A DNA stretch of 59,776 nucleotides, the filler included. It is 4 parts of 4 records of this genome, joined end to end, with 100 filler letters (N's around TTAATTAATTAA, not from the genome) between each part and the next. Parts side by side here need not be neighbours in the genome. Positions count along the whole stretch, not along the records: positions 32,731 to 47,549 come from SRR20825006_1623; 3 more parts are not named here. One strand, 5' to 3'. Made by a program: the position numbers and the translations under genes. Shown here in pieces: positions 29,487 to 47,649 of this stretch (position 1 is the stretch's first letter; each line of letters starts with the position of its first letter). The notes below the pieces were generated by a model. It was given only the letters and a program-made list of their open reading frames with translations. It searched no databases and was not told where the DNA came from.

Positions 29487-29492
29487 GACAGC

Positions 29493-29528
29493 AAAAAGGG
29501 GCAGCACCTGCGCGCCGCCCCCTCTTTG
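29493..29528. terminator. Probable bidirectional terminator
   Basis: AAAAAGGGGCAGC...GCCGCCCCCTCTTT between convergent genes. Confidence 0.55.
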
Positions 29529-29546
29529 AAAACGTGGTGAGGTCGG

Positions 29547-31079: not shown

Positions 31080-31238
31080 GAAATGAATCCTTCAAGGGGT
31101 CGGTTGAACGCGAGGTTGCACTATCGTGTTGCAGGCCCGTGTGCGCGTCAAGGGGGAGCAGGGTCGGGATTCTCCCCACTGGACGCGGGCCTTGTTGCGC
31201 ACTACGCCTTGGGCGCAAACAAATAAAGGACCCGGCAA

Positions 31239-31988
31239 ATGGACATGACAGGACAAGTGGTGATGATCACCGGCGCGAGCCGTGGCATCGGTGCCGAAAC
31301 CGCGCGGATTTTCGCCGGCGCGGGGGCCAAGGTGGCGCTGCTGGCGCGCAGCGAGAACGATATTGCCGAGCTGGCAGGCGAGATTGGTCCGGCGGCGATT
31401 GCGATTCCCTGCGATGTCAGCCGCTATTGGGAGGTCGAGGCGGCGGTGAATGCAACGGTCAAAACCTTTGGCGGGCTGAACGTGCTGATCAACAATGCCG
31501 GCGTGATCGAACCCATCTCGCATCTGATCGCGGCCGATCCTGCCGAATGGGCCAAGGTGATCGACATCAACCTGGGCGGCGTGTTCAACGGGATGCGCGC
31601 GGCGGTTCCGGTGATGATCAAGGGCGGCGGCGGTTCGGTGCTGACCATCAGTTCGGGCGCGGCCCATGGGCCGGTCGAGGCCTGGAGCCATTACTGCGCA
31701 TCCAAGGCTGCCGTTCACATGCTGACTGCCTGCCTGGACAAGGAAAACGCCGCCGACGGCATCCGCGCCATGGGCCTGTCGCCGGGCACCGTTGCCACCC
31801 AGATGCAGCGCGAGATCAAGCAAAGCGGCGTGAATCCGATCAGCAAGCTGGACTGGTCCGACCACATCCCCGCCGACTGGCCTGCCAAGGCGCTGCTGTG
31901 GATGTGTTCCAAGGATGCCGATGGCTATTGCGGTCAGGAAATCTCGCTGCGCGATGAAGAGATCCGCGCCAAGGTCGGCCTGTCGTGA
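31239..31988 (+). CDS. Short-chain dehydrogenase/reductase
   Basis: TGASRGIG, NNAG, YCASK. Confidence 0.93.
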   Translation: MDMTGQVVMITGASRGIGAETARIFAGAGAKVALLARSENDIAELAGEIGPAAIAIPCDVSRYWEVEAAVNATVKTFGGLNVLINNAGVIEPISHLIAADPAEWAKVIDINLGGVFNGMRAAVPVMIKGGGGSVLTISSGAAHGPVEAWSHYCASKAAVHMLTACLDKENAADGIRAMGLSPGTVATQMQREIKQSGVNPISKLDWSDHIPADWPAKALLWMCSKDADGYCGQEISLRDEEIRAKVGLS

Positions 31989-32599
31989 TCGAACTGGCCA
32001 AGGATGGCGGCGTCTGGACGGTTACGATCAACCGTCCGGACAAAGCCAATTCGCTGACGCCGGACATGCTGGCCGAACTGGCGGACATCGCCGAAAGCGC
32101 CACTGAGGCCCGCGCCTTGATCCTGACGGGGCGGGGCAAGGTGTTCAGCGCCGGTGCTGACCTCGATGCTGCGCGCGCGGGCATGGCCACCTCGCCCGAT
32201 TGGGAACGGCTGTCGTCGGCCATTGCGCGGCTGCCGGGGCTGACCATCACTGCGCTGAACGGGACGCTGGCGGGTGGCGCCACGGGCATGGCGCTGGCCT
32301 GCGATCTGCGCATTGCCGTTGCGGGGGCCAGGTTCTTCTATCCGGTGATGAAGCTGGGGTTTTTGCCGCAGCCGTCTGATCCGGCCCGCATGGCGGCACT
32401 GATTGGCCCCGCGCGGACCAAGCTGATCCTGATGGGCGGCCAGAAAATCGACGCCGACACTGCCCTTGCCTTCGGCCTGATCGACCGCATCGTAAGCGAT
32501 GACCTCCTTGTGCAAACCGCAATGGACATCGCTGCCGACACGCTTGCCGCAGATCCTGCCATCGCCCGCCAGATCAAGATGATGTGCAGCCCCGGCTGA
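31985..32599 (+). CDS. Enoyl-CoA hydratase/isomerase family protein
   Basis: NRPDKANSL, FSAGADL, NGTLAGG, ALACDLR. Confidence 0.92.
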   Translation: MIELAKDGGVWTVTINRPDKANSLTPDMLAELADIAESATEARALILTGRGKVFSAGADLDAARAGMATSPDWERLSSAIARLPGLTITALNGTLAGGATGMALACDLRIAVAGARFFYPVMKLGFLPQPSDPARMAALIGPARTKLILMGGQKIDADTALAFGLIDRIVSDDLLVQTAMDIAADTLAADPAIARQIKMMCSPG

Positions 32600-32630
32600 A
32601 CCTTCATCTTGCCTGATAAACTCCGGGGGA

Positions 32631-32730
32631 NNNNNNNNNNNNNNNNNNNNNNNNNNNNNNNNNNNNNNNNNNNNTTAATTAATTAANNNNNNNNNNNNNN
32701 NNNNNNNNNNNNNNNNNNNNNNNNNNNNNN
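32631..32730. other. Artificial contig linker
   Basis: N-run with central TTAATTAATTAA. Confidence 0.99.
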
Positions 32731-32731
32731 C

Positions 32732-33424
32732 GAGTTTATGGAGAAACATTCGGTCGCGCGGCTTATTGGTGCTCCTCCCGGTTATGTTGGGTATGAAGAA
32801 GGCGGCGTGCTGACAGAGGCGGTGCGCAGACGCCCTTATCAGGTGGTGTTGTTTGATGAGGTCGAGAAGGCGCACCCTGATGTCTTTAACGTGCTGTTGC
32901 AGGTGCTGGATGACGGCCGTCTTACAGATGGGCAGGGTCGCACAGTTGATTTCACCAACACCATGATCATCCTAACCTCCAACCTTGGTTCGCATTTGAT
33001 AGCGGAATTGGGGGAGGATGACCCGGTTGAAAAAGTGCGCGACGGTGTGATGGACGTGGTGAAAAGTGCATTCAGGCCCGAGTTCATTAACCGGCTGGAT
33101 GAAATCATCCTGTTCCACCGGCTCGCGCGGGCGCACATGGCGGGCATTGTTGATATCCAGCTTGAACGGCTTCACAAATTGCTGGTGGACCGCAAGATCA
33201 CGCTCACCCTTGATGATGCCGCCCGCAACTGGCTCGCGGATGCAGGCTATGACCCGGTATATGGCGCGCGCCCGCTCAAGCGAACAGTGCAGAAGAATAT
33301 TCAGGACCCGCTGGCCGAACGTATTCTGCGCGGTGACGTGAAGCCCGGGGATACCGTTTTTGTTTCGGTTCAGGACGGCGCCTTGACCTTTGAAGCTAAG
33401 GCGGACGCATCTGCCGCCGCTTGA
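32732..33424 (+). CDS. clpB: ClpB chaperone, C-terminal part
   Basis: [43 protein letters not shown]. Confidence 0.96.
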
Positions 33425-33440
33425 TAATAAAGCCATTATG

Positions 33441-33464
33441 AAAGGCCGCCATTGGCGGCCTTTT
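33441..33464 (+). terminator. Terminator after clpB
   Basis: AAAGGCCGCCA-T-TGGCGGCCTTTT inverted repeat. Confidence 0.8.
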
Positions 33465-33536
33465 CCGACCGGCGTTTGACATGAATTGGAGCAAGAGCGC
33501 ATATTGCACACAGACACCATGTGCTGAAGGTTCCAA

Positions 33537-34582
33537 ATGCGTCACAAGCTCTGCAAGCGGATGTTCAAGTTTTGGCGGCAACACGCCGTGTCAGGCAAGT
33601 TGCCTGAGCTCCGGGAATTTTTGAAGAAACAGAGCTGAACTTTCGCAAAGCCGGTGTGATCATCGTGCGTGAAGCGGGTGATGTTTTCTATGACTTTTGC
33701 GGTGACGAGGTGATGGAAGTGCTTGGCGCAGATATCCTCGGCCAGTCCATGACCTTCTGCTATCCGGAAAAATTCAAGGCGCTACAGCTTGAAAGTGCAG
33801 ACATCTGTTTTGACCAACAGGTGGGATTGGACCGATACTCCCGCTTCTGGTTTGGTCATCGGCATAAGGACGTGGAATGGCTGTTGCTGCCGGCCCGTGA
33901 CGCTATAGGCGACCGGATCGTGCTTGTTGGCATGTCTGCTACCTTTGTTGAGCATGACGAGCTGGATGTGCTTGCAGCGGGCTCTGACCTTGTGGAACGC
34001 ATCATCGCGCAAGATTACCTCGCTCTTGGCAAAGAGGTGCAGCTTGGCCATCTGAGCCGCCAGAGCTGGGCGGTGCTGGATGCCATGGGCGCCAGCGTGA
34101 GCGTGGACGGCGAGCCAGTACCGCGCAGCACCATGGCTATGGGCGGTGAAGCTGCCTATGCGGCGCGCAAGGCGTCGCTCGCGAAAGTATTGGCTGTTGC
34201 GAGCCGACAGGAATTTTTCGGCCATGCCAGCAAGCTCAGCAAGCTTTATAATTTTCATCAGGTTGAAACTTTTGGTGAAGCGCTGGCGGTTCTTGAGAAG
34301 GACCGGGTGGACGTCTTGATTGCCGACGAGCGTATTGAGGGTGGTGTTGGCCTTGACCTCATCCAGATTGTGCAAAACCAGAAAGAAGCGGCTGCCTGTG
34401 TGCTGTTGCTGACGCCACGCGTCGGAGCGGAAGACGCTACGATTAGAACCGAGAACGGGTTTGTTCATCTGCTTGTAAAACCGGCGGGGGATTTTGCGCT
34501 TCGGAAAGCGATAGATGACGCAGGTATTTTTGTGCGTACGCGCCAGAAAACCCGGTTTTATGAGGAAGGTGACAAAGCCTGA
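33537..34582 (+). pseudogene. PAS-like + atypical receiver-domain protein with a 1-nt frameshift
   Basis: MRHKLCKRMFKFWRQHAVSGKLPELREF from ATG 33537 joins EETELNFRKAGVIIVR (frame of ORF 33656) if one T is added to T5 at 33618-33622; C-terminal receiver-like VDVLIADE...LVKP. Confidence 0.65.
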
Positions 34583-34630
34583 CAGAGGGTTCGCGAAGCT
34601 GGACCCAAATGAGCTTCTGGGCTAAAACTC

Positions 34631-36475
34631 ATGCAAACGGGGCATGGGAGATTTTCTAGCGTGAACGCATCTATTTCGGCATTGTTGCAACAGGCGGTAA
34701 CACAGGTGCAGCAAGGCAATATAGCCGCCGCTGAGGGCATTCTTATCCCCCTCAATATGCGTACACCTGGCCACCCGGATGTGTTGCACCTTCTCGCCAT
34801 GGCGGCCAAACAGAAGGGCGATCATGGCCGCGCCGAGCATTTCTTTCGTGAGAGTTTGAAAGCATCCCCCGGGCAGGCTGCTGTACACGCTAATCTTGCC
34901 AATATGTTGGCCCACCTAGACCGCACAGATGAGGCGCTTGCGTCCTACCGAAAGGCGGTAGAGATAGAACCCGGTTTTGCAACGGGTTGGCATAACCTGG
35001 CATTGATGTTGTCGGAAACGGCAGATCATGATGGCGCGTTGGATGCTGCAAAAAAATATGAAGCCCTTGTGAAAAGGACGGCTGCAAGTGCTGAGCTCTT
35101 CGCCAGCATCTATCAGCACGCGGGTAATTTTTTGGCGGCCCGCGATACGCTTGAGGATTTTCTCGCCCGCGACCCCAATAACGCACGGGGCTGGAATGTG
35201 CTGGGGTCTTTGCTGCGCAAGGATGCTGAATTTAGCGACGCCGCCAAGGCGTTTGAAAAAGCCCGGTCTCTTGGCTTCCATGACCCGGACATGTATCAAA
35301 ACCTGGCTGAAGCCTACTATGAGGAACAGGAGCTTGGTAAAGCGGTTTCTGTGCTGGATGCCGCCGTACAAACCCTGCCGGATAACGGGCAGTTGCATTA
35401 TGTGCGGGCCAAATTCCGCTGGGAATCGATGCCGGACGAAGATCACCTGGCGGCGCTTAAGCAGGCTATCCCGAAACAACCCAACAATATTTCCTTGTGG
35501 GGAGCGTATTTTGATCTCCTGAGCCACGAGGGCCGATTTGAAGATATTCTCAAAGGTTTGTCTGAGGCGTATCGCTTTAATATCCGTGCGCCTCGCTTAA
35601 GCCTTGCCGAGGCCGTTGCCTTGTCACGGACCGAAAAGCTTGATGAAGCAACTGCGGTTTTTGAGAAACTGCTGCAAACTGACCCGGATAGTGCCCCGCC
35701 AAAATTGAACTATGCTTCGCATCTGATGAAGGCGGGTGACCCAGAAAAAGCGGAAAAGCTGTGTGCTGATGTGTTGGCCGCCGACCCCGGCAACCAGAAA
35801 GCCTGGACCTTCCGCGGCACTGCTTGGCAGTTGATGGGTGATGATCGGGCGAACTGGCTGTTTGATTTTGAGCGCATGGTGAACCCTGTCGATGTTGACC
35901 CGCCGGAAGGTTATGACAGCCGCGAGACCTTTTTTGAGGCAGCCCGGCAGGAGCTTGATAACCTGCATCGTATGCAGTCTCACCCTTTGGACCAGACACT
36001 GCGGGGAGGCACACAAACCAATGGCTTCCTGTTTCGCATTAAGAACCCCGTGTTGCAGGCGCTTCGTACGCAGATAAACAATGCCGTGGAAAAGGTTATC
36101 GCTGATTTTCCGGATGATGCGGATCACCCGTTCTGGTGCCGCCGGAGCGCTGGTTTTGATTTCAGTGGTGCTTGGTCTGTGCGCCTGAAAAGCCAAGGGT
36201 ATCACACCAATCATTTCCATCCAGAGGGCTGGCTGAGCTCTGCGCTGTATATCGCGCTGCCGCAGGAGGTGAAAACCGGAAGCGGCACAGAAGGGCACAT
36301 CCAGTTTGGGGTGCCAACGGTGGAAATGGGCGTTGAACTTGCCCCGGGGCGGATTGTCAAACCTGAGGTCGGGCGGCTGGTGCTTTTCCCGTCCTATATG
36401 TGGCATGGGACGATCCCCTTCACCTCTGATGAGCCAAGGATGACGGTCGCTTTTGATGTGGTACCTAAACCCTAA
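34631..36475 (+). CDS. TPR-repeat + putative 2OG-Fe(II) oxygenase (TIGR02466-like)
   Basis: Long TPR region; QTLRGGTQT, AWSVRL, GYHTNHFHPEGWLSSALY, LVLFPSYMWHGT, RMTVAFD. Confidence 0.88.
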   Translation: MQTGHGRFSSVNASISALLQQAVTQVQQGNIAAAEGILIPLNMRTPGHPDVLHLLAMAAKQKGDHGRAEHFFRESLKASPGQAAVHANLANMLAHLDRTDEALASYRKAVEIEPGFATGWHNLALMLSETADHDGALDAAKKYEALVKRTAASAELFASIYQHAGNFLAARDTLEDFLARDPNNARGWNVLGSLLRKDAEFSDAAKAFEKARSLGFHDPDMYQNLAEAYYEEQELGKAVSVLDAAVQTLPDNGQLHYVRAKFRWESMPDEDHLAALKQAIPKQPNNISLWGAYFDLLSHEGRFEDILKGLSEAYRFNIRAPRLSLAEAVALSRTEKLDEATAVFEKLLQTDPDSAPPKLNYASHLMKAGDPEKAEKLCADVLAADPGNQKAWTFRGTAWQLMGDDRANWLFDFERMVNPVDVDPPEGYDSRETFFEAARQELDNLHRMQSHPLDQTLRGGTQTNGFLFRIKNPVLQALRTQINNAVEKVIADFPDDADHPFWCRRSAGFDFSGAWSVRLKSQGYHTNHFHPEGWLSSALYIALPQEVKTGSGTEGHIQFGVPTVEMGVELAPGRIVKPEVGRLVLFPSYMWHGTIPFTSDEPRMTVAFDVVPKP

Positions 36476-38145
36476 AGCAAACTGGCCTTTGCAAGATAGT
36501 CCCGCAACGGAGTAAGGTGCTCGTCATAATGTTTGTGGCGGCCACTTGAGCGAGTATATAGCGGTTCTCGCACCTGCCAGTAGCTGACGGTTTTCACCGT
36601 GTTTCTCAGTTTGTGAAACTCCAAGCAGCCCTCATGCCAAGGTAAGCCCAGAAATTCGAGAAGCGCTTTTGTCTGATCACGGGGGGTCTCAACAAAAGTA
36701 TCATAATGTATCTCGAATATGTCGTCCGGGAACAGCGCCTTCCAGTGCGCCATTAGCCTGTGCTGCTGTACATAATAATGGCCAATGTCGAGAAGATTGC
36801 GCGCATAAGCCATGCTGTCCGCAAGCTCGAGGAAATAAACCGACAGGCAATTATCCAGCGGATGCCGTGTGGTGTGAATGAAGCGAGCATTCGGGAACAG
36901 GGTTTTGATGAGCCCAATATAGAGGAAGTTGTCCGGACGTTTATCGGTGACGAGCCCACTGTTTCCAAACCGGTTTTCCAGCAAGCTGATATAGGCGTCG
37001 GCCATAGGCGTCAGGTCTGCTGCGGTTTTATCCGTGATGCTGGCCGGAAACGGCGCCAGGTCCCGGCTCACAAGGGATACAAAATATTCCAGCTCGCCTC
37101 CGGGGGTCGCATCAGGGTGGGCTGCGATAACCTGTTCTATCAAGGTAGAGCCAGAGCGGAACATGCCACAGATGAAGGTGGGCTGAGCATCCGATATAAC
37201 GGGCAGGTTTTTAAACCAGTGAGTGGAGAATGTGTCCCGAATAGCCGCAAAGAAGGCATCGCTTTCATTCCTGTCATAAGGAGGGGCGATGCTTGAGGCA
37301 GTCCGGTTAGCTGTCTGGTAGCACTTAAAAGCCTTATTGTAGTGTCCTCGCGCGTCATGGGCTTTGCCAAGCGCAAAGTTCAAGCTGGATGCCTCGCGAG
37401 GCGCGGCATTCTTGACCTTGGCAAGCGTGGTGGCATTGGCGAGCAGGCCATCATTTATTTCTGTGGCGGTGCTTAGGTTCAAGAGCCGTGCCAGCGCAAT
37501 GGCGTTCCCCGGCGCGATATCCGCCACGCGGCGATACAGTTCAGCAGCAGCGTCGCGGTTTGAACGCTCCTCATGCAGGTTGGCATAGTTCAGTAAGGCA
37601 GGGACATACGTGGGATTGATCTTGAGCGCAGATTGTAGGCACTGCTCAGCCCGATCATCCTGCCGCAGGTGATCGCTATAGATTACCGCCTTGTTGAGCC
37701 AAACCTCCTCAGGACCATCGATGTTCAGTGCCAGTGCTTGATCATAGGCCTTGAGCGCATCCTCAAAGCGCCCGGCGCTGCGCAGGAGGAAACCATGATT
37801 GAAATAGCCCGTCGCATATCCAGGCAGTTCTTTGTGCAATTTCTCGAAGGCGACATCTGCTTTGTCAAAAGCATCAGCACGGCCATAGATGTCAGCGGCA
37901 TCCGCAAGAATTTGCGCGGGCTCGGGCACCCGTGTCGCCACGTTCATCATGTAATCAGCGGCAGCCACCAAGTGACCTTCGTCAAGGTTCAGCCGGATAA
38001 GCGCACTGAGAACCTGCACCTGTGGGGCATCGGTGCCGATAAGACCTTCAAACAGTTCGATGGCTTTTTGGCGGTCTCCCGCCCGGGCGAATTGCACAGC
38101 GCGTGCAAACCTGTCGCGTGCGCTATGTTCGCTTGTGTTAGCCAT
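36472..38145 (-). CDS. TPR-repeat sulfotransferase
   Basis: 5'-PSB loop GMFRSGSTL, TDKRP, 3'-PB RHPLDNCLS, QVREPLY. Confidence 0.92.
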   Translation of the reverse strand: MANTSEHSARDRFARAVQFARAGDRQKAIELFEGLIGTDAPQVQVLSALIRLNLDEGHLVAAADYMMNVATRVPEPAQILADAADIYGRADAFDKADVAFEKLHKELPGYATGYFNHGFLLRSAGRFEDALKAYDQALALNIDGPEEVWLNKAVIYSDHLRQDDRAEQCLQSALKINPTYVPALLNYANLHEERSNRDAAAELYRRVADIAPGNAIALARLLNLSTATEINDGLLANATTLAKVKNAAPREASSLNFALGKAHDARGHYNKAFKCYQTANRTASSIAPPYDRNESDAFFAAIRDTFSTHWFKNLPVISDAQPTFICGMFRSGSTLIEQVIAAHPDATPGGELEYFVSLVSRDLAPFPASITDKTAADLTPMADAYISLLENRFGNSGLVTDKRPDNFLYIGLIKTLFPNARFIHTTRHPLDNCLSVYFLELADSMAYARNLLDIGHYYVQQHRLMAHWKALFPDDIFEIHYDTFVETPRDQTKALLEFLGLPWHEGCLEFHKLRNTVKTVSYWQVREPLYTRSSGRHKHYDEHLTPLRDYLAKASLL

Positions 38146-39709
38146 TGATCAGCCCGGCGGCTGTTAGTTTTTCCTGCAGGACACTCAGATGTTTTTCGAA
38201 GTTCCGCCAGTTATGAACAGAGCTGGTGTAAATTGGTTCGCGAATTTGCGCAGCACTTGCTGTCGATGATGCGGATGTGGACTTCTCGACCGTGGTGAGT
38301 TCATCGGACCATGACAAGCCACAGTGCTTTGCGATACGTTTTCCTTCGGTCTTTGGCGCCGCGACAAGGGCTTCATAAGATACATCTAAAATATCGTCTG
38401 GCATCACCGTGCGCCAGTGGGCCATCAGTTGGTGATATGCGACATAATATTCGGCAAGATCGGACATGTCGTACGAGAAGAAATACGCCTGATTAAACAG
38501 TGTTTTGTAGACCGCGAAGCATGTATCCAGTGGATCGCGTACGAGGTGGATAATCCTGGCATTGGGCAGGGCTTTCTTTATGAGCCCACAATAGAGGAAA
38601 TTGAACGGCAGTTTGTCAGTGAAACGTTTCGCCCCGCCGATCATGCCGTGGACATTTTGCAAATATAATTCGCCCATACGAGAATAGTCAGCTTCCAGTG
38701 CGGCGCTGAGTGGATTGAGATTTCTGTCTGGATGCTGGGTGATATGCGCGTTGATCACAGCGCGCATGGCCATGGAAAAATCGTTCAGTTCGCCCCCAGG
38801 GGTGACATCACGGTGATTGCCCAATATACGTTCAACAAGAGTGGTGCCGGTACGTGGCATGCCCACGACAAAGATGGGCGCATCTTCGCTCGTACCAGCA
38901 GGAATTTTGTCAAAGGCTTCTTTCGTGAAGGCGTTTGCGACATCCGTCATGTTCTGCACTTCGGCACTGATGTCATAGCGCAGGTGTCCGCGCTGAATAT
39001 CCGCGCCGCGTTTGAGCGCTGCAAACGCAGCGTCGTAATTGCCGATGTCTTCCTGTTCTTTGGCGAGGGCGTAGGCTGCGCCCACTTCGTCCTTCCAGCC
39101 AAGCTTCTGACCCAGCACAGCTTGCAGCATGATGGTGTGGTTGGCTTCGGGTGTTTGTTTCTTAAGTTTAGCGCGCAGCATCAACGCTTCGCCGTGGTCT
39201 GGTACTTGGGTAAGAAAGCGGGACACAGCGTCTTCTGCACTTTCCATATCGCCACAATAGTAGCAGTTTTTAGCCAGTTCGAACAAAAAGTGTGGATTGT
39301 CGGCACCGAGTGATTTTGCTTTAGCGAAATAGTCCTCGGCTCCCGCGGGGTTATCTGCCTGAGAGAATATCTGCGCCGCCTGAAATTGAATGCCGGCGTC
39401 TTCAGGTTTGAGGGCTGCGGCAGCCTTTGCGCTTTCCTGAGCCGCAATACCCTGACGCAGCATCAGTTCAACTTGTGCTTTTTTAAGGTGTAGGGCTGGC
39501 GCTCCGCCGTCAAGTTCAATGGCGCGACCGATGTACTGGAGAGCTTCAGTAAAACGCCCCTGATAAAGTGCTACCTCGCAGGCAAAATAGGAAACCGGGG
39601 GCAGGTCAGGCAACTGGGCCAAGAGGGTTCTACTGATTCCTTCAGCCTGTTCAGGCTTTTTGTCGGCGAGAAGTTGCAAGCCTTGGCGAATAAGGTGAAG
39701 CGCATCCAT
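38138..39709 (-). CDS. TPR-repeat sulfotransferase (second)
   Basis: GMPRTGTTL, TDKLP, RDPLDTC, TASAAQIREPIY; overlaps the start of the next gene. Confidence 0.92.
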   Translation of the reverse strand: MDALHLIRQGLQLLADKKPEQAEGISRTLLAQLPDLPPVSYFACEVALYQGRFTEALQYIGRAIELDGGAPALHLKKAQVELMLRQGIAAQESAKAAAALKPEDAGIQFQAAQIFSQADNPAGAEDYFAKAKSLGADNPHFLFELAKNCYYCGDMESAEDAVSRFLTQVPDHGEALMLRAKLKKQTPEANHTIMLQAVLGQKLGWKDEVGAAYALAKEQEDIGNYDAAFAALKRGADIQRGHLRYDISAEVQNMTDVANAFTKEAFDKIPAGTSEDAPIFVVGMPRTGTTLVERILGNHRDVTPGGELNDFSMAMRAVINAHITQHPDRNLNPLSAALEADYSRMGELYLQNVHGMIGGAKRFTDKLPFNFLYCGLIKKALPNARIIHLVRDPLDTCFAVYKTLFNQAYFFSYDMSDLAEYYVAYHQLMAHWRTVMPDDILDVSYEALVAAPKTEGKRIAKHCGLSWSDELTTVEKSTSASSTASAAQIREPIYTSSVHNWRNFEKHLSVLQEKLTAAGLING

Positions 39710-39793
39710 GGTGTCGTCCCTGTGTTGCGGCACGTTTGCCGGGCCGTAATTCTTGGTCTTAGCCTAGGGCTGAGAAAAATTGAATAAAAGATT

Positions 39794-39820
39794 AAAAAAG
39801 GCGGGCCGAAGCCCGCCTTT
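39794..39820 (-). terminator. Terminator after the TonB-dependent receptor
   Basis: AAAAAAGGCGGGC-CGAA-GCCCGCCTTT; U-tract on the minus strand. Confidence 0.85.
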
Positions 39821-39843
39821 CCAAAAAGATTATGCCGACTGAA

Positions 39844-42654
39844 TTAGAAGGCAACCTGTACGTTAGCGTGCAGGTAACGACCCAGTGTGTCGTAGAAACC
39901 AGCGAACGTGTTGGCGTTGGTGGAGAAGTTACCACCTACGAGCGGAGGCTCTTTGTCGAAGATGTTGTTCACACCAACGAGGAAGCCAACGTGCTCGTTC
40001 ACGTCAAACGAAGCTTTCAGGTCGAAGTAGGACTGAGCTGCGATATGATCGTCAACCGAACCATCACCGAGGCCGCCTACGCTACCGAAGTAACGCCACT
40101 TGGCAGACACGCTCCAGAAGCTATCTGGTGTGAAGTTAACGGTCATTGTGTGGCGCCATACTGGCTGAGCGAAACAGCCGTTAGATGTATAGTCGTCTAC
40201 ACAATCATACTCGTCGTTCTCAAGACCGCCCACCGGATCAGTTATTTTCTTGAGCATGTAAGTGCCCGAGATTTTAGCCGACACGGTGCCTACACCAACA
40301 TCAGTGGTGTAGTCAGCTGCAACGTCGATACCTTGAAGGTGCTGACCACCGGTGTTGACGTTCGTGCCTACAACATAACCAGAGTTACCGAGCCACAGGC
40401 TGCCACCGTTACCACGGTTGATCAGGCTACAGAATTCGGTCGCACCAGTGAGACCACACTGACGAACAGCAATCTCAGGATCGATGATCGCGATTGCGTC
40501 TTCAAGCTTGATGTCCCAGAAGTCAACGCGCATTTGAAGGCCGGCCATTGGATTGGCAATTACACCAAATGTCCAGGAGTCAGCTTTCTCAGGGTCGATG
40601 GTTGGGTTACCACCGTACAGAGCGTTGTACTGGCTGGCTGGGCTGAGTGAGATGTTGCCGTACTGACCAGCTGTTACACCAGTGTTCGCACACTGTGCAG
40701 CAGTCAACTCAGGGCTGGCACCAGCACATGGATCAACACCGCCCCACAGGCCACGGGCTTGTGGTGAGAACAGCTCGTTCACGTTCGCAGCACGAACAGC
40801 ACGGTTGTAGCTACCAACGAATTTGATTTCGTCGATTGGGTTCCATGACAGTGCAACTTTGTATGTCGCAGCGCCACCGGAGGTGCTGTAGTCAGAGTAA
40901 CGACCACCAAGCTCAAGCTCAAGAGTAGCAGGCAATGGAACAACCAACTCGCCGAAGACTTCTTTCACATTGTAAGAACCTTCAACAGACGGTGTTGCAC
41001 CACCTTGACCAAGAAGCTGACCTTCGGAGAATACGGTGTCAGAGTTGGAGTCGAATACCTCTTTGCGGTACTCGATACCGATAACTGCCTGAACACTGTC
41101 TTCAGCTGAAGGAACGGTCAGACCGAGGTCACCCGTTACATAGGCGTTGGCAATGTATTCTTTGGTGATACCTTCGAGGACAGCAACACCGGTCAGGCCA
41201 CCAGCCTGCTCAGGGGTTACGCCTTGGTATTGGAACACATCATATTCTACGTTCTCAAGAGCTTCGCGGATGTTTGGTGCGAAGAAATCGTTCACGTAGT
41301 TGGATACGAATGTGGTTGAACCATACTGGAAGGATGCATCGTAGGACCAGTTATCCGTAATGCTGCCTTCAACACCAGTTACAATGCGGAATGCGTTGTG
41401 GCTGATGAGGTTCGCACGTGGGCCACCTTCTACGTTACGCTTACCAATGTAAACGCCGAACTGCTCACCTGGGCCGATACCGTAGGTGTCGGTGAGGAAT
41501 TGACGCTGAGCGTCGTTCAGAAGGCCAGATTCGTATGGCAGGTCGTACTGCTCAGCGAAGAATGTACCGGACTCAGCAATCTGAGCATCGGTGCGATCAC
41601 GCATGAAGCTGACTTCCATGTATGGACGAGCGTGTTCGTTGATTTCGTAATCAATGAACGCACCAAATGTCCAGCGCTCATCAGGGCGCATGAAGTGGTT
41701 AACCGGAGCGTAGTTGTATACGTTCGAAGCGCCGTCAACAAAGTTGCTGCTTGGGTCAAGCGTCCAGCGGCGGGCGAAGTCCATGTCATCAGGAGCGCCG
41801 AGGTAGAAGTTTGGAATTTCAGCGTTACCAGAACCACCACAAGACGTGCCAGCAGCACTCAGAGCACATGATGAATAGTCACGGTCAGCTTGCAGGAATT
41901 CCTTAACTTTACGCCATGTAGCGTAAACTGTTGCGTGACCATTTCCGTCAGCAAACTCGCCGCCCATGGTTACGTCAACGTTGTATGCAACGCCATCGAT
42001 ACCGCTTGAGCCGTCTGGATATTCGAAGTTTTTCGCATCCATCAGACCCTGGATGTAGTCGTTGCTGTTATTGTGCTGGTAACCAGAGATGCCAGCGCTG
42101 ATTTCGATACCTTCGAAATCGTCTTTCATCACGAAGTTAACAACACCAGCAACCGCGTCAGCACCGTATGTTGCCGAAGCACCACCGGTGATCACTTCAG
42201 CACGTTCAACGAGCGAAGCTGGGATCTGGTTGATGTCAGGCGCGTTGCTGAGGCCACCTGGCTGCAGGCGACGACCGTTTACGAGCACGAGTGTACGAAC
42301 AGTACCCATGCCGCGAAGGTCAAGTGTTGCAGTACCAGTGGCACCGTTGGAGATGAACGATGTTTGCGCAGCTTCAATCTGCGGCAAGCTGTTCATCATG
42401 TCCTCGACCCGTGTGAAGCCCGACAGTTTAATGTCGGCGCTAGATGTCACGGAGATCGGGCTAGCACTGGTGAAGTCCTTACGTACGATACGTGAACCGG
42501 TAACAACAACCTCTTCAAGGTCGAAGTCTTCCATTGTGTCCGCTTCTTGAGCGGAAGCACCCGTTACACCTGCACCCAGCGCGAAGCTGGCGAGGAGGGT
42601 TGCGGCGCTACCCAGGAGGGCAGTACGACGCATTTTCTTGAGTTCCTTAGACAC
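39844..42654 (-). CDS. TonB-dependent outer-membrane receptor
   Basis: Signal peptide, EEVVVTGSRI, LRGMGTVRTLVLVNGRR, GASATYGADAVAGVVNF, NIFDKEPP, terminal Phe. Confidence 0.96.
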   Translation of the reverse strand: MSKELKKMRRTALLGSAATLLASFALGAGVTGASAQEADTMEDFDLEEVVVTGSRIVRKDFTSASPISVTSSADIKLSGFTRVEDMMNSLPQIEAAQTSFISNGATGTATLDLRGMGTVRTLVLVNGRRLQPGGLSNAPDINQIPASLVERAEVITGGASATYGADAVAGVVNFVMKDDFEGIEISAGISGYQHNNSNDYIQGLMDAKNFEYPDGSSGIDGVAYNVDVTMGGEFADGNGHATVYATWRKVKEFLQADRDYSSCALSAAGTSCGGSGNAEIPNFYLGAPDDMDFARRWTLDPSSNFVDGASNVYNYAPVNHFMRPDERWTFGAFIDYEINEHARPYMEVSFMRDRTDAQIAESGTFFAEQYDLPYESGLLNDAQRQFLTDTYGIGPGEQFGVYIGKRNVEGGPRANLISHNAFRIVTGVEGSITDNWSYDASFQYGSTTFVSNYVNDFFAPNIREALENVEYDVFQYQGVTPEQAGGLTGVAVLEGITKEYIANAYVTGDLGLTVPSAEDSVQAVIGIEYRKEVFDSNSDTVFSEGQLLGQGGATPSVEGSYNVKEVFGELVVPLPATLELELGGRYSDYSTSGGAATYKVALSWNPIDEIKFVGSYNRAVRAANVNELFSPQARGLWGGVDPCAGASPELTAAQCANTGVTAGQYGNISLSPASQYNALYGGNPTIDPEKADSWTFGVIANPMAGLQMRVDFWDIKLEDAIAIIDPEIAVRQCGLTGATEFCSLINRGNGGSLWLGNSGYVVGTNVNTGGQHLQGIDVAADYTTDVGVGTVSAKISGTYMLKKITDPVGGLENDEYDCVDDYTSNGCFAQPVWRHTMTVNFTPDSFWSVSAKWRYFGSVGGLGDGSVDDHIAAQSYFDLKASFDVNEHVGFLVGVNNIFDKEPPLVGGNFSTNANTFAGFYDTLGRYLHANVQVAF

Positions 42655-42925
42655 TCTGCGTTTCCTCTTCTATTTTATTACTTTCCAAGCACTCGGAATT
42701 CGCGGAAAATTATAACCGCACATAAGGTCTAGCCAGATTCTGTCGTGGGGCGACACAAAAGTTTAACGTTCGGCATGGTTTTGCTTATGCATTAAACGAA
42801 TGGTGTGTTATTTGAGCCACAGATATAAACGATAGATTATTTTCCGCTCATATTGCCTAATTATGGTGCAAAACCATACTTTTAGTGATTGCAGTTTAGT
42901 TTAGTCGGAGGGCGGTGATCTAATG

Positions 42926-43415
42926 TCAGAGTGGCACATGGGACGCACGTGCCCACTTGGAGAGAAGCCATTTTCCGCCCGAAGTCGGAGGCTCTCCAGA
43001 GTGCAAGGTTTTACGGTCAGGCGAACCGTCGGGCCTGATATTGTTGAAGCATAGAAAGACGCCCAGACCTGCCCTGAAATCGAGCTTGATATCTCAAAAC
43101 CGTGTTACGCCTCCACCATATCCTGTGTTCAGGTATGTGAGACTCGTTTTGATTCTCTGCCCGCCTGTTTTGAGGTGTTGCTGGTGCGCCGGGAAGGTGG
43201 GGTCGAAAAAGTCATAATGCGGCTTGTACTGTTGGCCAGACCTGCAATGCAGAAGCGACAACGGGTCCGCGTGCGTCACCGGGTGATCCATAGCCTTCAT
43301 CATCAGGGCATTGATCGATTGCACAACGATGTCGCTTTCAAGCAGGCGGAAGTTAGAAAAACGATTGGTACGGGTTTGGTCTGAAACCTCTCCGGCTTGC
43401 GAATCATGTGCCGTG
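42926..43415 (-). pseudogene. Prolyl-4-hydroxylase-like 2OG-Fe(II) oxygenase remnant
   Basis: GQQYKPHYDFFDP...GGQRIKTSLTYLN..GGVTRF, in-frame TGA at 43094-43096, then LHSGEPPTSGGKWLLSKWAR to stop 42926; N-terminus absent. Confidence 0.85.
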
Positions 43416-44524
43416 GCTGTCGCCGTCGGTGTCGAATGTCGAGAATAATGCACGGGTAGCTTCTGGCATATAGGGGTTGCGAAGGTCGACATCCATGCCT
43501 TCACTAAATGGTGTTGGTGCCAGTTGGCTTTCGACGCGGTTGTGTGCGTATGACATCTCGGCGAACAGGTTGATGTCGTTTGTTACCTGATAGTTGCCGA
43601 TACCAGTAATAGCATGTCGCACGAGCGGAAGCTGGAGGTTATTTACCGGCGCGAAATTATAGGCGTGTTTATCACCATCATGAGGATAGGTGTGCCATTA
43701 TCGTCAATGAAATGGTTCAAGCCGTTACTCGCGAAACGACCCTGTAGGATGCCGGCACTACCACCAGGTACAAAGATCGGGTTTCCATTGTCATCTGTGG
43801 TCTCGCCAAGCTGCACAGCGGCGAAGCTCCGGTCACCAGCAAGGGTCTGATTACGCTTCAGATAGTTACCGGAAATCACCACATTACCGCGACCGTCGGC
43901 CAAGTTTCCGCCAAGGGTGAAGTCAACGTTGTAGCGCTCGGCATCACCTTCCTGGCTAAGGCCATATTGGCCGTTTACCTGAACGCCTTCAAAGTCATCC
44001 TTTAGGATGAAGTTCACAACGCCAGCCATGGCGTCAGAACCGTAAACGGCAGAAGCACCACCGGTTACAACTTCAATCTGCTTGATAAGTGCGGGCGGAA
44101 TGTTGTTCAAATCCACCACGCCGTTAGAGGCGGAACCAACAAACCGACGGCCGTTCATCAGTACGAGCGTACGTGAGGTGCCAAGGTTGCGCAGGTTTAC
44201 ATTTGCCTGACCGTTACCAGGGTTGTTTGTGGTTGGGCCGTTTGTAGATGCTGTCTGCGGCATGCCGTCGAATATGCGGTCAATTTCAACCACAGCGCCG
44301 ATGCTGATCTCTTCTGCCGAGATCACGTTCACGGGGCCGTTGGCGACCAGATCTTTCCGCGGAATACGGGAGCCGGTTACCACAACTTCCTCGAACTCTG
44401 ATTCTGTTGCCGCGCTGGTTTGCGCAAAAGCGCTAGTGCTTGGGGCCATGGACATCATGGTGGCGATAGTGGCTGTGCCTGCCAACAGGCCAGCCTTTAT
44501 TGTTCTACCCTGTTTATGGGTCAT
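43404..44524 (-). pseudogene. Second TonB-dependent receptor, frameshifted and truncated
   Basis: GGAGG RBS, EEVVVTGSRI and plug domain intact; frameshift near 43683 (AYNFAPVNNLQLP continues in another frame); most of the barrel is missing. Confidence 0.88.
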
Positions 44525-44754
44525 TCTGTTCTCCTCCCAAAGAGAGTTGTTAGTCAAAAAGAGAGGACAATGAATGCTGATAAGGCGCAGTAAATAAAAA
44601 TTGTAATACGGTTTTTATTCTGATTTATATAATATTTATTTATATGTTTTTAATAAACTTCATGTAAAAATTATAAAAATATGAACTTATATATATCTGC
44701 AGTTTGTAGTTTTAGTCTTTTGCTTCGTCGGTTTAATACTTTTCTTCTGTATAA

Positions 44755-44789
44755 GAAAAGGCGCCCACCATGCCAGGGGGCGCCTCTTT
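44755..44789 (-). terminator. Probable terminator
   Basis: AAAAGGCGCCC...GGGCGCCTCTTT. Confidence 0.6.
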
Positions 44790-44813
44790 ACCCATGGGTT
44801 CTAAAAACGTGAA

Positions 44814-45467
44814 TCAGTTCACGCGCTTGACCCGGAATGTTTTACCTGTCTCATCAACGGTCATGAAAAGACCGCCAATTTCTGTTTCCTCAATGCGTAC
44901 TGCCATCCCTGGCTTGATCCGGCCTGGTTTAGAGTCGTCAACATTCTGCCAGATATGGCCATTTTCAAGTTTAATATACAGGTCGCCAATGGCGGAACGT
45001 TTTGTTGCAACGATGCTGCTTTGGAAGGTGTTGAACCCGCCGTCAGTTGCTCCGCGTTGACCAAACTCTTCCAATGCAAGCGCCGCGAGATCTGCCTGAC
45101 GCTGTTCTTCAGCGGCAATGAGGGCCTCTTTTTCAGCTTTTTCGCGCTCTGCTTCCGCGCGCAGCCTTGCAGCTTCTTGATCAGCAGCAAGCCTTAGGCG
45201 CTTTGCTTCCGCACGTTCTGTGGCGGCAACGGCTTTCAGCCGCTCAGTCTCGGCTTTCAGTTGATCTGCTTCCTTGAGCCTTGCGTGTGCGCGCTCAAAG
45301 TCAAAGATGGACGCCGCTTTGTCGAAACAAGCAAGGCGCGAAGCATCGTCACTGATCTCGGCACATGCCTTGAAAGCCTGCACGCTGCTTTGCGCGTCAT
45401 CTGCGCCAGCGGGAGCGATCGTCAGCCCTGCTAGCACAAGCCCAAAGCTGAGGTGTTTCAATTTCAT
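44814..45467 (-). CDS. Exported hypothetical protein (CxxIxD...RLACFD, coiled coil, beta-rich C-terminus)
   Basis: Signal peptide, ACAEISDDASRLACFD, LENGHIWQ, RVKRVN. Confidence 0.85.
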   Translation of the reverse strand: MKLKHLSFGLVLAGLTIAPAGADDAQSSVQAFKACAEISDDASRLACFDKAASIFDFERAHARLKEADQLKAETERLKAVAATERAEAKRLRLAADQEAARLRAEAEREKAEKEALIAAEEQRQADLAALALEEFGQRGATDGGFNTFQSSIVATKRSAIGDLYIKLENGHIWQNVDDSKPGRIKPGMAVRIEETEIGGLFMTVDETGKTFRVKRVN

Positions 45468-45586
45468 TCTGTGTTCCCTCTCACATTTTTATATAGCGCG
45501 TTCATATAGCGCGTTGCGCGGCACCATAGTAGCGCCGCGGCGCATCATTGTCTCGCCAAGATGACCGGCAGATGAACGCACTGCAT

Positions 45587-47032
45587 TTAGCGGTCCGTCC
45601 CTTGAACTTGTGCGGCATCATCAAGTGTGTTTGGCGCAGGGCCAAGGGCACCGGCCTGCATTATATAAGAGCGTTGTGTTTGTATCTGAAGGATGTCTGC
45701 CAGCAGTTGGGTACGCTGTGAAGCAAAGACCTCAAGGTCAGTACCCCTGAGCTCCCGGCCCGTTGGCAGATCGAGCGTAAGCGGGTTGACCTGCTTGTCG
45801 TTCATCATCACTTCATAGTGCAGGTGTGCGGCACTCACGCGACCCGTAGCACCCGCATAACCGATAACTTGGCCCTGTTTCACCCGGGCACCGCTTTTAA
45901 TGCCTTTGCCGTACCGGCTCAGGTGAGCGTAGGCTGTCTTATAAGTACCGTTATGGCGGATGCGGATATAGTTACCGTAGGAGCCGTAGCGGCTAGCGCG
46001 TTCCACCACGCCGTCACCAGCTGCCATGATAGGCGTGCCGGTGCGAGCCCGGAAGTCAACGCCCTTGTGCATGCGTGTATATCCCAGCACCGGGTGTTTG
46101 CGGCGACCATAGTTTGAAGTCACTACCGTGACATCAAGTGGTGTTTTCATCAGGGCTTTGCGAGTGCTTTTGCCTTCTCCGTCAAAATAGTCGGCGTCGC
46201 CTGCGGCATCGATGAAATAATTGGCTTCCAGCATGCGTTTCCGCAGGCCCAGTTTTACCTGCAGGAGTTGCCCTTCCTGCATATCACCAAAGTCCGGGGC
46301 GTATTGGCGCTCAAAATAAACCTGAAAGGTGTCGCCGGTGCGTATCTCGCGCTCAAAGTCGACATCAAAGCTCATCAGCCTGATCAGGTCGACAATCACC
46401 TTGGTTGGCAGGCCAGCCCGCTGCGCAGAAAGATAAAGGCTGTCTGTAATTTCGCCTTCTACCAAGTGGGTGAGTGAAATGGTTGTTATGTCTTGCCGTT
46501 CCGCTTTGAAGCTGTCGCCTTTGGCATACACAACGGCCTCAGCATCAAAGCTATCGCGCATGCGGAGCTCTTCCACATTACCGTCAGCGTCGGTGGTGAT
46601 TCGAACTTCCTGCCCGCGCTGTAGTTTACGCAGGTTGGTCACATCGCGCAGGTTGGCCACCATACGGTGCGCGGTAACCGAAGGAATGTCGGCGCGTTGC
46701 AGTAGGCCAATCAGCGTTTCGTTACGTTTGAGGCTATATTGTTTCTCTGTTGGTGCAGGTGGCGGCGCGTCTTCTTCAACCTGGGCATAGCCCTCTACAG
46801 ATGGGGGCATCTGGGTCGCGACATCAGGCACATTTGGCTCTTCGTCAGGCGCAGTATCGGGTGTTCTTAAAAGTAGATGCCCGACCATTAGGACAGCTAA
46901 TCCGAAACCGGCGATGGCAGTAAAGCCCAGCGGCGACTCGCTCGCCCTGATCAGGTGCCCAATACGGGCTTTGGTGTCGGCCGGGAGCCGAATTGCCAAA
47001 ATGCGGTCACGAATCTCGTGAAAGCGAAACAT
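45587..47032 (-). CDS. M23 family peptidoglycan DD-endopeptidase (MepM-like)
   Basis: HKGVD, YGNYIRIRH, YAHLS, HLHYE; N-terminal TM. Confidence 0.93.
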   Translation of the reverse strand: MFRFHEIRDRILAIRLPADTKARIGHLIRASESPLGFTAIAGFGLAVLMVGHLLLRTPDTAPDEEPNVPDVATQMPPSVEGYAQVEEDAPPPAPTEKQYSLKRNETLIGLLQRADIPSVTAHRMVANLRDVTNLRKLQRGQEVRITTDADGNVEELRMRDSFDAEAVVYAKGDSFKAERQDITTISLTHLVEGEITDSLYLSAQRAGLPTKVIVDLIRLMSFDVDFEREIRTGDTFQVYFERQYAPDFGDMQEGQLLQVKLGLRKRMLEANYFIDAAGDADYFDGEGKSTRKALMKTPLDVTVVTSNYGRRKHPVLGYTRMHKGVDFRARTGTPIMAAGDGVVERASRYGSYGNYIRIRHNGTYKTAYAHLSRYGKGIKSGARVKQGQVIGYAGATGRVSAAHLHYEVMMNDKQVNPLTLDLPTGRELRGTDLEVFASQRTQLLADILQIQTQRSYIMQAGALGPAPNTLDDAAQVQGTDR

Positions 47033-47239
47033 TTCTTTCCCTTCTGATTCAACTCGGTCCGGCCAGAGATTCGCGTACGATTCCCGTTGGTCGGACCCAT
47101 TGGAAACAAAATACAGTCTTTATATATATAGGGCAACATGCCTGTCATACCCCAAGCGCTTTCTAAACACCTACCAAAGGCGTCTTCTATTGGAAAGCGC
47201 ATGTTTCTGCGCCTTATAGAGCAAAGCTGTAAAAAAAGT

Positions 47240-47549
47240 GCAAAAGAAGCAAAAAAGCCCTTGCGTTCGAGAGCCGATCCCCCTAGAAACCGCTCCACCG
47301 ACGGGGCGCGCTGCTCTACTGGACACGAGCCAAACGGTTCGAAAGTTCGGAAGGAATGCCGCAACGTCATCACGATCTAGAGGCCTTAAAAACGGCCTTG
47401 ACATGGTGGCCCTGGTCACCATATACAGATCGCCCTGTCGCACGCTGACGAAACGTCCGGTCCGACAAACTGCCTGACAGAAGAATGTTTCAGGTGACTG
47501 GATTTTCCGGTCGGGCAGATTTTTGATCTTTGACATAGTTGATTTGGAA
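47240..47549 (+). promoter_or_regulatory. Probable rRNA-operon tandem promoters and boxA
   Basis: A-tract UP element + TTGCGT(47261)-17 nt-TAGAAA + GC-rich discriminator; TTGACA(47398)-18 nt-TATACA; boxA-like TGATCTTTGACA at 47524-47535; contig breaks directly after. Confidence 0.7.
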
Positions 47550-47649
47550 NNNNNNNNNNNNNNNNNNNNNNNNNNNNNNNNNNNNNNNNNNNNTTAATTA
47601 ATTAANNNNNNNNNNNNNNNNNNNNNNNNNNNNNNNNNNNNNNNNNNNN
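47550..47649. other. Artificial contig linker
   Basis: N-run with central TTAATTAATTAA. Confidence 0.99.

Follow-up and report, generated by a model that had tools for sequence, protein, structure and literature searches.

High-affinity uptake into Gram-negative bacteria runs mainly through TonB-dependent receptors (TBDRs), which are also routes for siderophore antibiotics. Human aspartate/asparagine beta-hydroxylase (AspH) joins a tetratricopeptide repeat (TPR) domain to an oxygenase domain, and FlmG and HMW1C are bacterial protein modifiers with TPR or all-alpha scaffolds. The closest studied case of a receptor encoded beside a cytoplasmic 2-oxoglutarate (2OG) dioxygenase is CciT–CciO of Caulobacter, equivalent to PiuA–PiuC of Pseudomonas and Fiu–YbiX of E. 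coli. CciT cannot function in the absence of cytoplasmic CciO even though the CciT protein continues to be made, and the authors leave the mechanism open among models of substrate synthesis, inhibitor removal and substrate oxidation (PMC12004947). Methanobactin operons carry a TBDR (MbnT) and a sulfotransferase (MbnS) for a sulfated peptide-derived ligand (PMC3621798). Here, a window of 59,776 nt, a pseudomolecule of four concatenated contigs, was analysed for a seven-gene locus on its third contig that encodes TBDRs, two TPR-sulfotransferases, a TPR-fused 2OG oxygenase, a prolyl 4-hydroxylase (P4H)-type oxygenase remnant and an exported protein. An initial annotation had described this locus as a candidate peptide or protein sulfation–hydroxylation system, with a set of known parallels that was incomplete, since the CciT–CciO/PiuA–PiuC precedent had been overlooked. 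On sequence comparison, the locus is a Kordiimonas-type, partly decayed copy of a widespread, undescribed proteobacterial module.

Composition and recurrence of the gene set

All seven genes were recovered where they had first been placed (open reading frame (ORF) listing and Pfam; Table 1), and five of them form an intact core, namely the TPR-2OG oxygenase, the two TPR-sulfotransferases, one TBDR and the exported protein, termed ENG after a conserved NGQ-x-W turn in its C-terminal small beta-barrel. No NCBIfam model scored above cut-off for any protein of the locus. For the neighbourhood survey, one genome per species was pattern-scanned with an alignment of oxygenase homologues, giving 80 loci with flanks of up to 10 kb (13 of them on contigs under 9 kb), and ORFs in these loci were labelled with hidden Markov models (HMMs) and phmmer queries derived from window sequences and recurring clusters of ORFs. 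The gene set recurs and is not a chance neighbourhood, which supports the initial annotation: the TBDR subfamily is present in 48 of the 80 loci, ENG in 36, a TPR-sulfotransferase in 33, a TPR plus Asp/Asn-beta-hydroxylase-like protein (PF05118) in 25, an S-adenosylmethionine (SAM) methyltransferase in 12, and a P4H-type gene in 3. The PF05118 protein, absent from this locus, is the usual third enzyme and had escaped the earlier description. Gene order and strand vary between lineages, which include Kordiimonadaceae, Halieaceae, Woeseiaceae, Lysobacteraceae, several sphingomonad families, Sphaerotilaceae and others, with cultivable carriers such as Congregibacter, Chromatocurvus, Luteimonas and Sphingosinicella. 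The core enzyme of the module is the TPR+PF13759 oxygenase, with the sulfotransferase, AspH-like, methyltransferase and P4H-type proteins as variable additions.

Linkage of oxygenase and receptor was also mapped onto a maximum-likelihood phylogeny of oxygenase domains, where a TBDR lies within 5 kb in 49 of 81 rows; the linkage, scattered over families, needs at least 11 changes, a number as low as which was reached in none of 500 shuffles. The window copy and that of an intact, syntenic Kordiimonas locus (L016) fall beside Halieaceae copies, away from other Kordiimonadaceae. When five genomes were searched whole, nine of ten oxygenase-domain copies lay at most 3.5 kb from a TBDR of the same subfamily, and the tenth at 13 kb. 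Across the 80 loci, no inner-membrane transporter or importer, exporter or biosynthetic core was conserved, nor any glycosyltransferase, flippase, acyltransferase or polysaccharide export gene, and no recurrent ORF family of at least 80 aa was found other than those named. A survey of small ORFs, covering 1362 intergenic ORFs (25-79 aa) in the 49 loci with a linked receptor, gave no credible precursor peptide, in agreement with the first reading of the window; the apparent small-ORF clusters were low-complexity frames or shadows among close relatives only. No published description of the set was found in the searchable literature (TBDR with sulfotransferase, TPR or oxygenase, and family names).

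The oxygenase, about 70% identical to its Kordiimonas orthologue, matches PF13759 (2OG-FeII_Oxy_5) at residues 514-609 with 82.5 bits, against a cut-off of 27, and TIGR02466 (NCBIfam) with 48.7 bits, below the cut-off of 62.5, and is therefore a PF13759 member outside TIGR02466 proper; Pfam gave no match to PF13640 (2OG-FeII_Oxy_3) on the intact enzyme. Residues H528, H530, H592 and R603 are invariant in 19 oxygenase homologues and are the probable metal and 2OG ligands. An AlphaFold 2 model of residues 421-614 (predicted local distance difference test (pLDDT) 92) was compared by Foldseek, in which the nearest folds were 3bvc and 2rg4, both uncharacterised, followed by prolyl hydroxylases (viral, bacterial, PHD2, OGFOD1), the closest folds among characterised proteins, and PiuC (9qn4, 9ghl). 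By a crude hydropathy test (a 15-residue stretch with a mean of at least 2.0), no hydrophobic 15-mer of the kind seen in signal peptides or membrane segments was found in 88 oxygenase, 50 sulfotransferase, 30 AspH and 13 methyltransferase ORFs, in agreement with the lack of an obvious signal peptide noted earlier for the three intact enzymes. TPR arrays span some 280-400 residues in the three intact enzymes of the locus.

The two sulfotransferases, A and B, share the motifs GMxRSGSTL, TPGGEL and TDKRP and are 79% (A) and 70% (B) identical to their L016 orthologues. An ATG 8 codons downstream of the GTG start of A matches the start of its orthologue, and the start of B overlaps the end of A by 8 bases. 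The best solved relatives of A are protein-tyrosine sulfotransferases (8w5z, E 2e-9; TPST2, 3e-8); the chain alignment with TPST passes through GxPR(S/T)GTTL, the loop that binds 3'-phosphoadenosine-5'-phosphosulfate (PAPS), GGE and DKxPF, and A and B keep these motifs. The gene for B converges on that for the oxygenase and the two stop codons meet, as had been noticed before, with an overlap of two bases (oxygenase 36473-36475, sulfotransferase 36472-36474).

The N-terminus of the intact TBDR consists of a signal-like segment and the stretch EEVVVTGSRI, which we take to be the TonB box, and its alignment contains four conserved Cys pairs. Only the plug matches solved TBDRs, and receptors of this subfamily, the one found alongside the TPR-2OG oxygenase, are about 930-1000 aa long. 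The receptor is 93% identical to its L016 orthologue (window 39844-42654 against L016:15219-18026), compared with 70-79% for the flanking enzymes and 88% for a clpB fragment among Kordiimonas orthologues; it may be either under unusually strong constraint or recently exchanged. A scan for a 19-base Fur-box consensus, with up to 6 mismatches allowed, showed no consistently placed site upstream of either the receptor or the ENG genes across the 80 loci, and in the window there was no site with at most 7 mismatches. Alphaproteobacteria may use iron regulators other than Fur.

For ENG, G170 and W173 are invariant across 28 aligned members from related loci, and the AlphaFold 2 model (pLDDT 89) shows a Cys-pair helical hairpin, a long helix, which in relatives is a variable, often Ala/Pro-rich linker, and an OB-like barrel. 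Foldseek returned weak OB-fold matches only (IF1 and the PAN N-domain, E about 0.02 or worse), Pfam gave no family above cut-off (VasI, PF11319, 18 bits, below cut-off), and an ESM Atlas search gave scores of 0.80-0.83, below a meaningful level. The family was found in 50 of 401 sampled Pseudomonadota genomes, and a TBDR lies inside the 1.5-kb flanks of 11 of 30 ENG loci, counts that take in one genome and one locus from the unpublished G530. The exported Cys-pair protein is a conserved module member, not a bystander.

Damage and orthology were judged against L016, and the comparison bore out the two genes that had been called dead. Residues 273-436 of the 436-aa L016 P4H-type protein match 43420-42929 with 58% identity (tblastn), the first 272 codons being gone, and Pfam 2OG-FeII_Oxy_3 scores 22.5 bits on 43094-43504(-), below cut-off, against 39.7 bits for the L016 orthologue. 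About the first 420 residues of the second TBDR are kept, followed by a frameshift near 43683 and a stop; the remnant matches the second TBDR of L016 in two frames (tblastn), and Pfam finds the Plug only (43643-44557(-), 73.9 bits). Since the 3' half of this TBDR and the 5' part of the P4H-type gene are lost, about 2.5 kb is missing, and relative to L016 the damage totals one ~2.5-kb deletion plus point damage. A Logan contig from a second study covers 43216-44179, including the deletion joint and the frameshift, with 0 differences, so the breaks are real and not assembly errors. Because most related loci have one receptor and no P4H gene, the genes lost here are an accessory pair. In a Woeseiaceae locus (L030:15913-17043), the P4H-type protein has at its N-terminus a SEC-C motif (24.9 bits), which is known as a zinc motif from the SecA C-terminus.

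Table 1. Annotated features of the window and the evidence for each
Feature	Position	Strand	Evidence and remarks
TPR + 2OG-Fe(II) oxygenase, 614 aa	34631-36475	+	TPR at about residues 15-400, C-terminal PF13759; anchor enzyme of the module
TPR-sulfotransferase B, 557 aa	36472-38145	-	Sulfotransfer_3, 135.8 bits, residues 322-505; converges on oxygenase gene
TPR-sulfotransferase A, 531 aa from GTG	38138-39733	-	Sulfotransfer_3, 170.3 bits, residues 286-477
Terminator-like hairpin	39795-39822	-	Between receptor and sulfotransferase genes; 12-pair stem, 7 G-C pairs, T run
Intact TBDR, 936 aa	39844-42654	-	Plug 73.6 bits and barrel 105.6 bits (Pfam), open frame
P4H-type 2OG oxygenase remnant	42926-43582	-	Last ~164 residues left; in-frame stop 43094-43096
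Second TBDR remnant	43362-44614	-	Signal peptide, plug, barrel start; frameshift near 43683; 3' half deleted
ENG exported protein, 217 aa	44814-45467	-	Signal peptide, Cys pair C-x9-RL-x-C-[YF]-D, long helix, C-terminal small beta-barrel
Receiver-domain protein	33656-34582	+	Upstream of oxygenase; Response_reg 30.9 bits; N-terminus may be frameshifted
M23 murein endopeptidase (MepM/ShyC-like)	45587-47032	-	Pfam Peptidase_M23, 109 bits
Artificial contig spacer	32631-32730	.	Left limit of locus-bearing contig
Artificial contig spacer	47550-47649	.	Right limit of locus-bearing contig

TPR-sulfotransferases were also found beside TBDRs of other subfamilies, a pattern missed in the initial annotation. 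Five module-bearing genomes gave 41 PF13469 matches, 20 of them with at least 120 bits, of which 6 are in oxygenase loci, 13 are in 12 examined stretches and 1 was left out. In 11 of the 12 stretches a Plug+barrel gene (Pfam) is the immediate neighbour of the TPR-sulfotransferase gene, and in the twelfth it is one gene away. The receptors of these stretches belong to other subfamilies (771-1023 aa), and their surroundings vary, including a betaine/choline/carnitine transporter (BCCT), an aminotransferase with aldehyde dehydrogenase and a glutamine-synthetase-like gene, sarcosine oxidase, an esterase with dehydrogenases, an amidohydrolase, peptidases and amine catabolism. Because the five genomes had been picked as module carriers, a wider Pseudomonadota sample was taken, in which PF13469 was present at E 1e-25 or better in 118 of 251 genomes, and the best listed sulfotransferase match of each of the first 60 genomes was followed up. 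A TBDR lies within 1 kb in 15 of these 60, within 200 bp in 14 of the 15, and the 15 cases come from eight families and at least two classes. By chance, a TBDR would be expected as immediate neighbour in roughly 2-3.5% of cases, an estimate that rests on 36-68 Plug domains in genomes of 3.4-4.6 Mb and takes gene density to be about one per kb. Absence of a TBDR in the other 45 was judged by a retrained Plug HMM, with a Pfam recheck of the immediate neighbours in 40 of them (excluding L141, L145, L166, L183 and L186).

Among the contexts without a TBDR were giant Calx-beta proteins accompanied by components of type I secretion, genes of the NTP_transf_5 family, and giant proteins of TPR, GT41 and methyltransferase type. 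In L148, L154 and L169 (also L170, L173 and L175), sulfotransferases of 860-900 aa lie between a giant Calx-beta protein and ABC/outer-membrane efflux genes, a context that suggests sulfation of the secreted giant protein. TPR-sulfotransferases of L143, L144 and L164 are flanked by an unannotated ~310-aa protein and an NTP_transf_5 gene; a sulfotransferase and a nucleotidyltransferase-family protein are listed among lasso-peptide genes in a table of PMC10040529. Those of L168, L174, L176 and L179 adjoin TPR-only proteins and 1380-aa GT41 (OGT-like)/FkbM methyltransferase proteins, another family of repeat-scaffolded modifiers. A trigger-factor-like gene (Trigger_N and Trigger_C, 296 aa, no PPIase match) stands between TBDR-like and sulfotransferase genes at L137:14893-19771 (Chromatocurvus); this single case of a nascent-chain chaperone paralogue would fit the idea of precursor modification. 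Finally, an orthologous TBDR/TPR-sulfotransferase pair adjoins a BCCT transporter in L126, L130 and L132 (one alpha- and two gammaproteobacteria), and the clusters listed as co-occurring with halotolerance in a comparative study of Pontixanthobacter include a TBDR, a sulfotransferase, a BCCT transporter and an Asp/Asn hydroxylase (PMC10040529). The BCCT pairing and the Pontixanthobacter clusters hint at a link to quaternary amines or osmolytes.

Candidate substrates of the enzymes

The reading favoured here, with a probability of roughly 0.4, is that the enzymes act on an export-bound polypeptide, with the receptor precursor and ENG as the most plausible candidates, and modify it before export. 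The TPR arrays would hold this chain unfolded in the cytoplasm; the catalytic domains would hydroxylate (using 2OG and O2) and sulfate (using PAPS) the held chain ahead of Sec export, and the modified residues on the envelope component would then tune ligand capture. This proposal is drawn from the presence of four enzyme families whose best-known members modify proteins, each fused to TPRs; from the one-to-one pairing with receptors in unrelated operon contexts; from the enzymes having no hydrophobic segments, so that the cytoplasm during synthesis is the only compartment they have in common with the receptor; and from the lack of a conserved transporter, exporter or precursor peptide in the loci. 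Pairing of sulfotransferases elsewhere with secreted polypeptides (the giant Calx-beta proteins with type I secretion, and the NTP_transf_5 contexts) points the same way. The polypeptide-modifying pathway proposed at the outset is supported in part: the best-known members of the enzyme families do act on proteins (TPST1/2, prolyl hydroxylases), with a polypeptide as the candidate substrate. The companion claim, that this is not a degradative polysaccharide locus, held, with no glycosidase or sulfatase gene in the gene set.

Several observations weigh against modification of an envelope polypeptide. No conserved acidic sulfation-type tyrosine was seen in the receptor or exported protein alignments, no tyrosine is conserved specifically in receptors of sulfotransferase-bearing loci (29 against 9 receptors, a small sample), and the single tyrosine of the ENG copy here is not conserved. 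To our knowledge, sulfated or hydroxylated TBDRs have never been reported. The terminator-like hairpin, itself a consensus match only, splits the receptor gene from the sulfotransferase genes in this locus. The association is also loose in places, with the oxygenase lacking any partner within 10 kb in 25 of the 80 anchored loci, 19 of 30 ENG loci lacking a TBDR inside the 1.5-kb flanks, and 45 of the 60 sulfotransferases of the phylum sample having no adjoining TBDR. The fold neighbours of the oxygenase include the small-molecule enzymes HygX, SptF and PasI, and Sulfotransfer_3, according to PMC13449962, also contains the small-molecule sulfotransferase BtSULT. Co-folding of the TPR-2OG oxygenase with mature exported protein, run without controls, gave a score of 0.00 and has no weight either way.

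The two small-molecule observations feed the main rival explanation, which we regard as somewhat unlikely: that the enzymes make, trim or detoxify the molecule imported by the receptor, be it a cell-associated chelator, a peptide-derived ligand or an imported nutrient, while the TPR arrays merely assemble a complex. Models of this kind are proposed by the authors of the CciT–CciO work (PMC12004947), and TBDR/TPR-sulfotransferase pairs do occur in operons with BCCT, major facilitator superfamily (MFS), aminotransferase, aldehyde dehydrogenase and sarcosine oxidase genes. However, there would be little sense in sulfating a nutrient bound for catabolism, receptors from widely differing operons are accompanied by one and the same type of enzyme, and a TPR array on every enzyme is unusual for small-molecule enzymes; nor do the loci conserve the exporter, inner-membrane importer or biosynthetic core, or place a Fur box consistently upstream. 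Tailoring of an envelope lipid or glycan, in which lipopolysaccharide, another outer-membrane lipid or an exopolysaccharide would be decorated and the receptor would depend on outer-leaflet chemistry, we consider very improbable. The PF05118 family includes the lipid A hydroxylase LpxO, and Sulfotransfer_3 members are cited in work on sulfated polysaccharides, but the AspH-like proteins, unlike LpxO, have no membrane segment, none of the glycosyltransferase, flippase, acyltransferase or polysaccharide export genes is conserved in the 80 loci, and the one-to-one pairing with individual receptor genes would be left unexplained. That the module is simply decaying in this organism, under relaxed selection and with the remaining genes doing little, is improbable: the two broken genes, whose breaks are real, and the possibly frameshifted receiver gene next door speak for it, whereas all five core genes retain their full length, with conservation at the identities given above, and the loss of a second receptor and of a P4H-type gene found in so few loci touches only the accessory pair.

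Modification of an export-bound polypeptide would have a wider form, that many proteobacterial TBDRs, or the exported OB-fold partner, are sulfated and hydroxylated as unfolded precursors by TPR-fused cytoplasmic enzymes; we think this generalisation doubtful, and unlikely as it stands. If true, outer-membrane receptors would carry anionic sites of the sulfotyrosine type, as animal chemokine receptors do, and the requirement of cytoplasmic PiuC, YbiX and CciO for outer-membrane transport would be explained. Modified receptors would represent a new kind of bacterial envelope protein maturation. The module shows the partnership between receptors and cytoplasmic enzymes to be much broader than the PiuC type, taking in TPST-like, AspH-like, PF13759 and methyltransferase enzymes, TPR scaffolds and several receptor subfamilies, and a vague receptor–enzyme association becomes a testable idea.

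Neighbouring genes and source contigs

Two genes flank the locus on its contig. The 367-aa L016 orthologue of the receiver-domain protein matches in two frames around 33620-33650, and of the 80 loci L016 and L044, both from Kordiimonadaceae, are the only ones with this neighbour. For the M23 gene, NCBIfam ShyC and MepM scores were below cut-off; M23 matches lie beside ENG (tblastn) in L028, L044, L055, L066, L084 and L094 and are recurrent in alphaproteobacterial loci, and membership of the endopeptidase in the module is uncertain.

The contigs of the window are joined by spacers at 17768-17867, 32631-32730 and 47550-47649, each consisting of N44, a 12-base all-frame stop linker and N44, identical at all three joints; these stop-linker joints had been overlooked. 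Since the spacers are artificial, the physical context of the locus is confined to 32731-47549, a Kordiimonas-like contig of 14.8 kb that the locus fills. The DNA of this contig is 70-76% identical to Kordiimonas sp. G152, and in clusters at 90% the encoded proteins fall together with ones named Kordiimonas sp. The left 32.6 kb (1-32630) belongs to another organism, matching G001, the nearest genome compared, at 97-98%; its contigs 1-17767 and 17868-32630 correspond to G001 contigs C1 and C3 and encode LpxK and a Kdo transferase of that organism. Genome comparison found none of the locus in G001, and the oxygenase is present in 0 of 151 genomes of its family. As the left contigs are G001-like and 32731-47549 is Kordiimonas-like, the assembly is a mix of contigs from at least two organisms. 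A horizontal-transfer island, in which a low-GC Kordiimonas-derived insert would lie in a genome of the G001 species, was considered and is ruled out by the artificial N/stop-linker joints, and the apparent truncation of clpB is for the same reason a contig end. Logan contigs from three runs of one study, possibly the source data, cover 32731-47549 with 0 differences.

Some further features of the contigs were recorded. In three runs of one study with different organism labels, all sampled words across the 32.6-kb joint region are present. At 32593-32630, the end of the second contig, ~30-38 bases match more than 20 G001 sites at 90-97%, in the manner of a dispersed short repeat, and the contig probably ends there because of it. 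Contigs of run X1 end at 34406, 35277, 44253 and 47114 in the same loose sequence of ~20 bases, in both orientations, a sequence that resembles a template-switch cDNA adaptor; if run X1 is cDNA-derived, parts of the locus (e.g. 39805-43092) would be transcribed, the run type being only guessed as DNA. At 49549-52081, in a different contig, a gene for an ArdC-like antirestriction/zincin protein (its DNA 91% identical to G001) adjoins an AIPR abortive-infection gene, a pair of mobile-element marks unrelated to the locus.

Comparison with known systems

Clusters for ribosomally synthesized and post-translationally modified peptides are marked by a precursor peptide with a processing or export gene, a combination found at the loci neither among recurrent ORF families of at least 80 aa nor among the intergenic ORFs of 25-79 aa. 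Methanobactin operons likewise have a precursor peptide, MbnB/C and an exporter, whereas none of these is present or conserved in the present module. With TPST1/2 and RaxST, the sulfotransferases have in common the Pfam family Sulfotransfer_3, in A and B with the PAPS loop and the catalytic Glu and Lys (the PAPS-loop Arg, the GGE Glu and the DKxPF Lys align with TPSTs), and a gene position beside genes for exported proteins. They differ from TPST in low similarity (E 2e-9 to 2e-4), an N-terminal TPR array of ~280-315 residues and a cytoplasmic, not Golgi-resident, location, and from RaxST of Xanthomonas, which has the peptide RaxX, in that no peptide substrate gene was found.

AspH, FlmG and HMW1C resemble the present enzymes in having a substrate-holding repeat scaffold fused to or beside the catalytic domain. 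HMW1C acts in the cytoplasm on an adhesin that is later exported, and its gene is grouped with those for this adhesin and its outer-membrane transporter, a three-part logic like that of enzyme, exported protein and receptor in this locus; the chemistry of FlmG and HMW1C, by contrast, is glycosylation. Protein prolyl 4-hydroxylases (Pseudomonas PPHD acting on EF-Tu, PHD2, OGFOD1 and viral collagen P4H) come closest in fold to the oxygenase domain among characterised proteins, with TM 0.56-0.62 and Foldseek E about 1e-5, but are 12-18% identical to it, and the alignment reads an invariant H-x-H...H here against the usual H-x-D...H.

The intact receptor, with plug, barrel and signal-like segment, is a TBDR in the ordinary sense. 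The nearest studied parallel to the module is the CciT–CciO pair: in both, a TBDR gene is co-conserved across Proteobacteria with that of a soluble 2OG oxygenase of the cytoplasm, and here the two are neighbours in the proportions found above (48/80 loci; 9/10 copies). In contrast to CciO and PiuC, the intact oxygenase here has a PF13759 and not a PF13640 catalytic domain, and only the broken P4H-type gene falls in PF13640, the broad Pfam family of PiuC. The receptor subfamily differs from CciT and PiuA, at 936 aa and with the plug alone matching solved receptors. Every enzyme here bears a TPR array, and sulfotransferases, AspH-like proteins, a methyltransferase and the OB-like exported protein are added; cciT–cciO is Fur-regulated, whereas the consensus scan showed no consistent Fur box here. 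The module resembles the CciT–CciO pair without belonging to it, and differs from it in oxygenase family, receptor subfamily and accessory set alike. By analogy, it may act as CciT–CciO and PiuA–PiuC do, with cytoplasmic chemistry needed for the function of an outer-membrane receptor.

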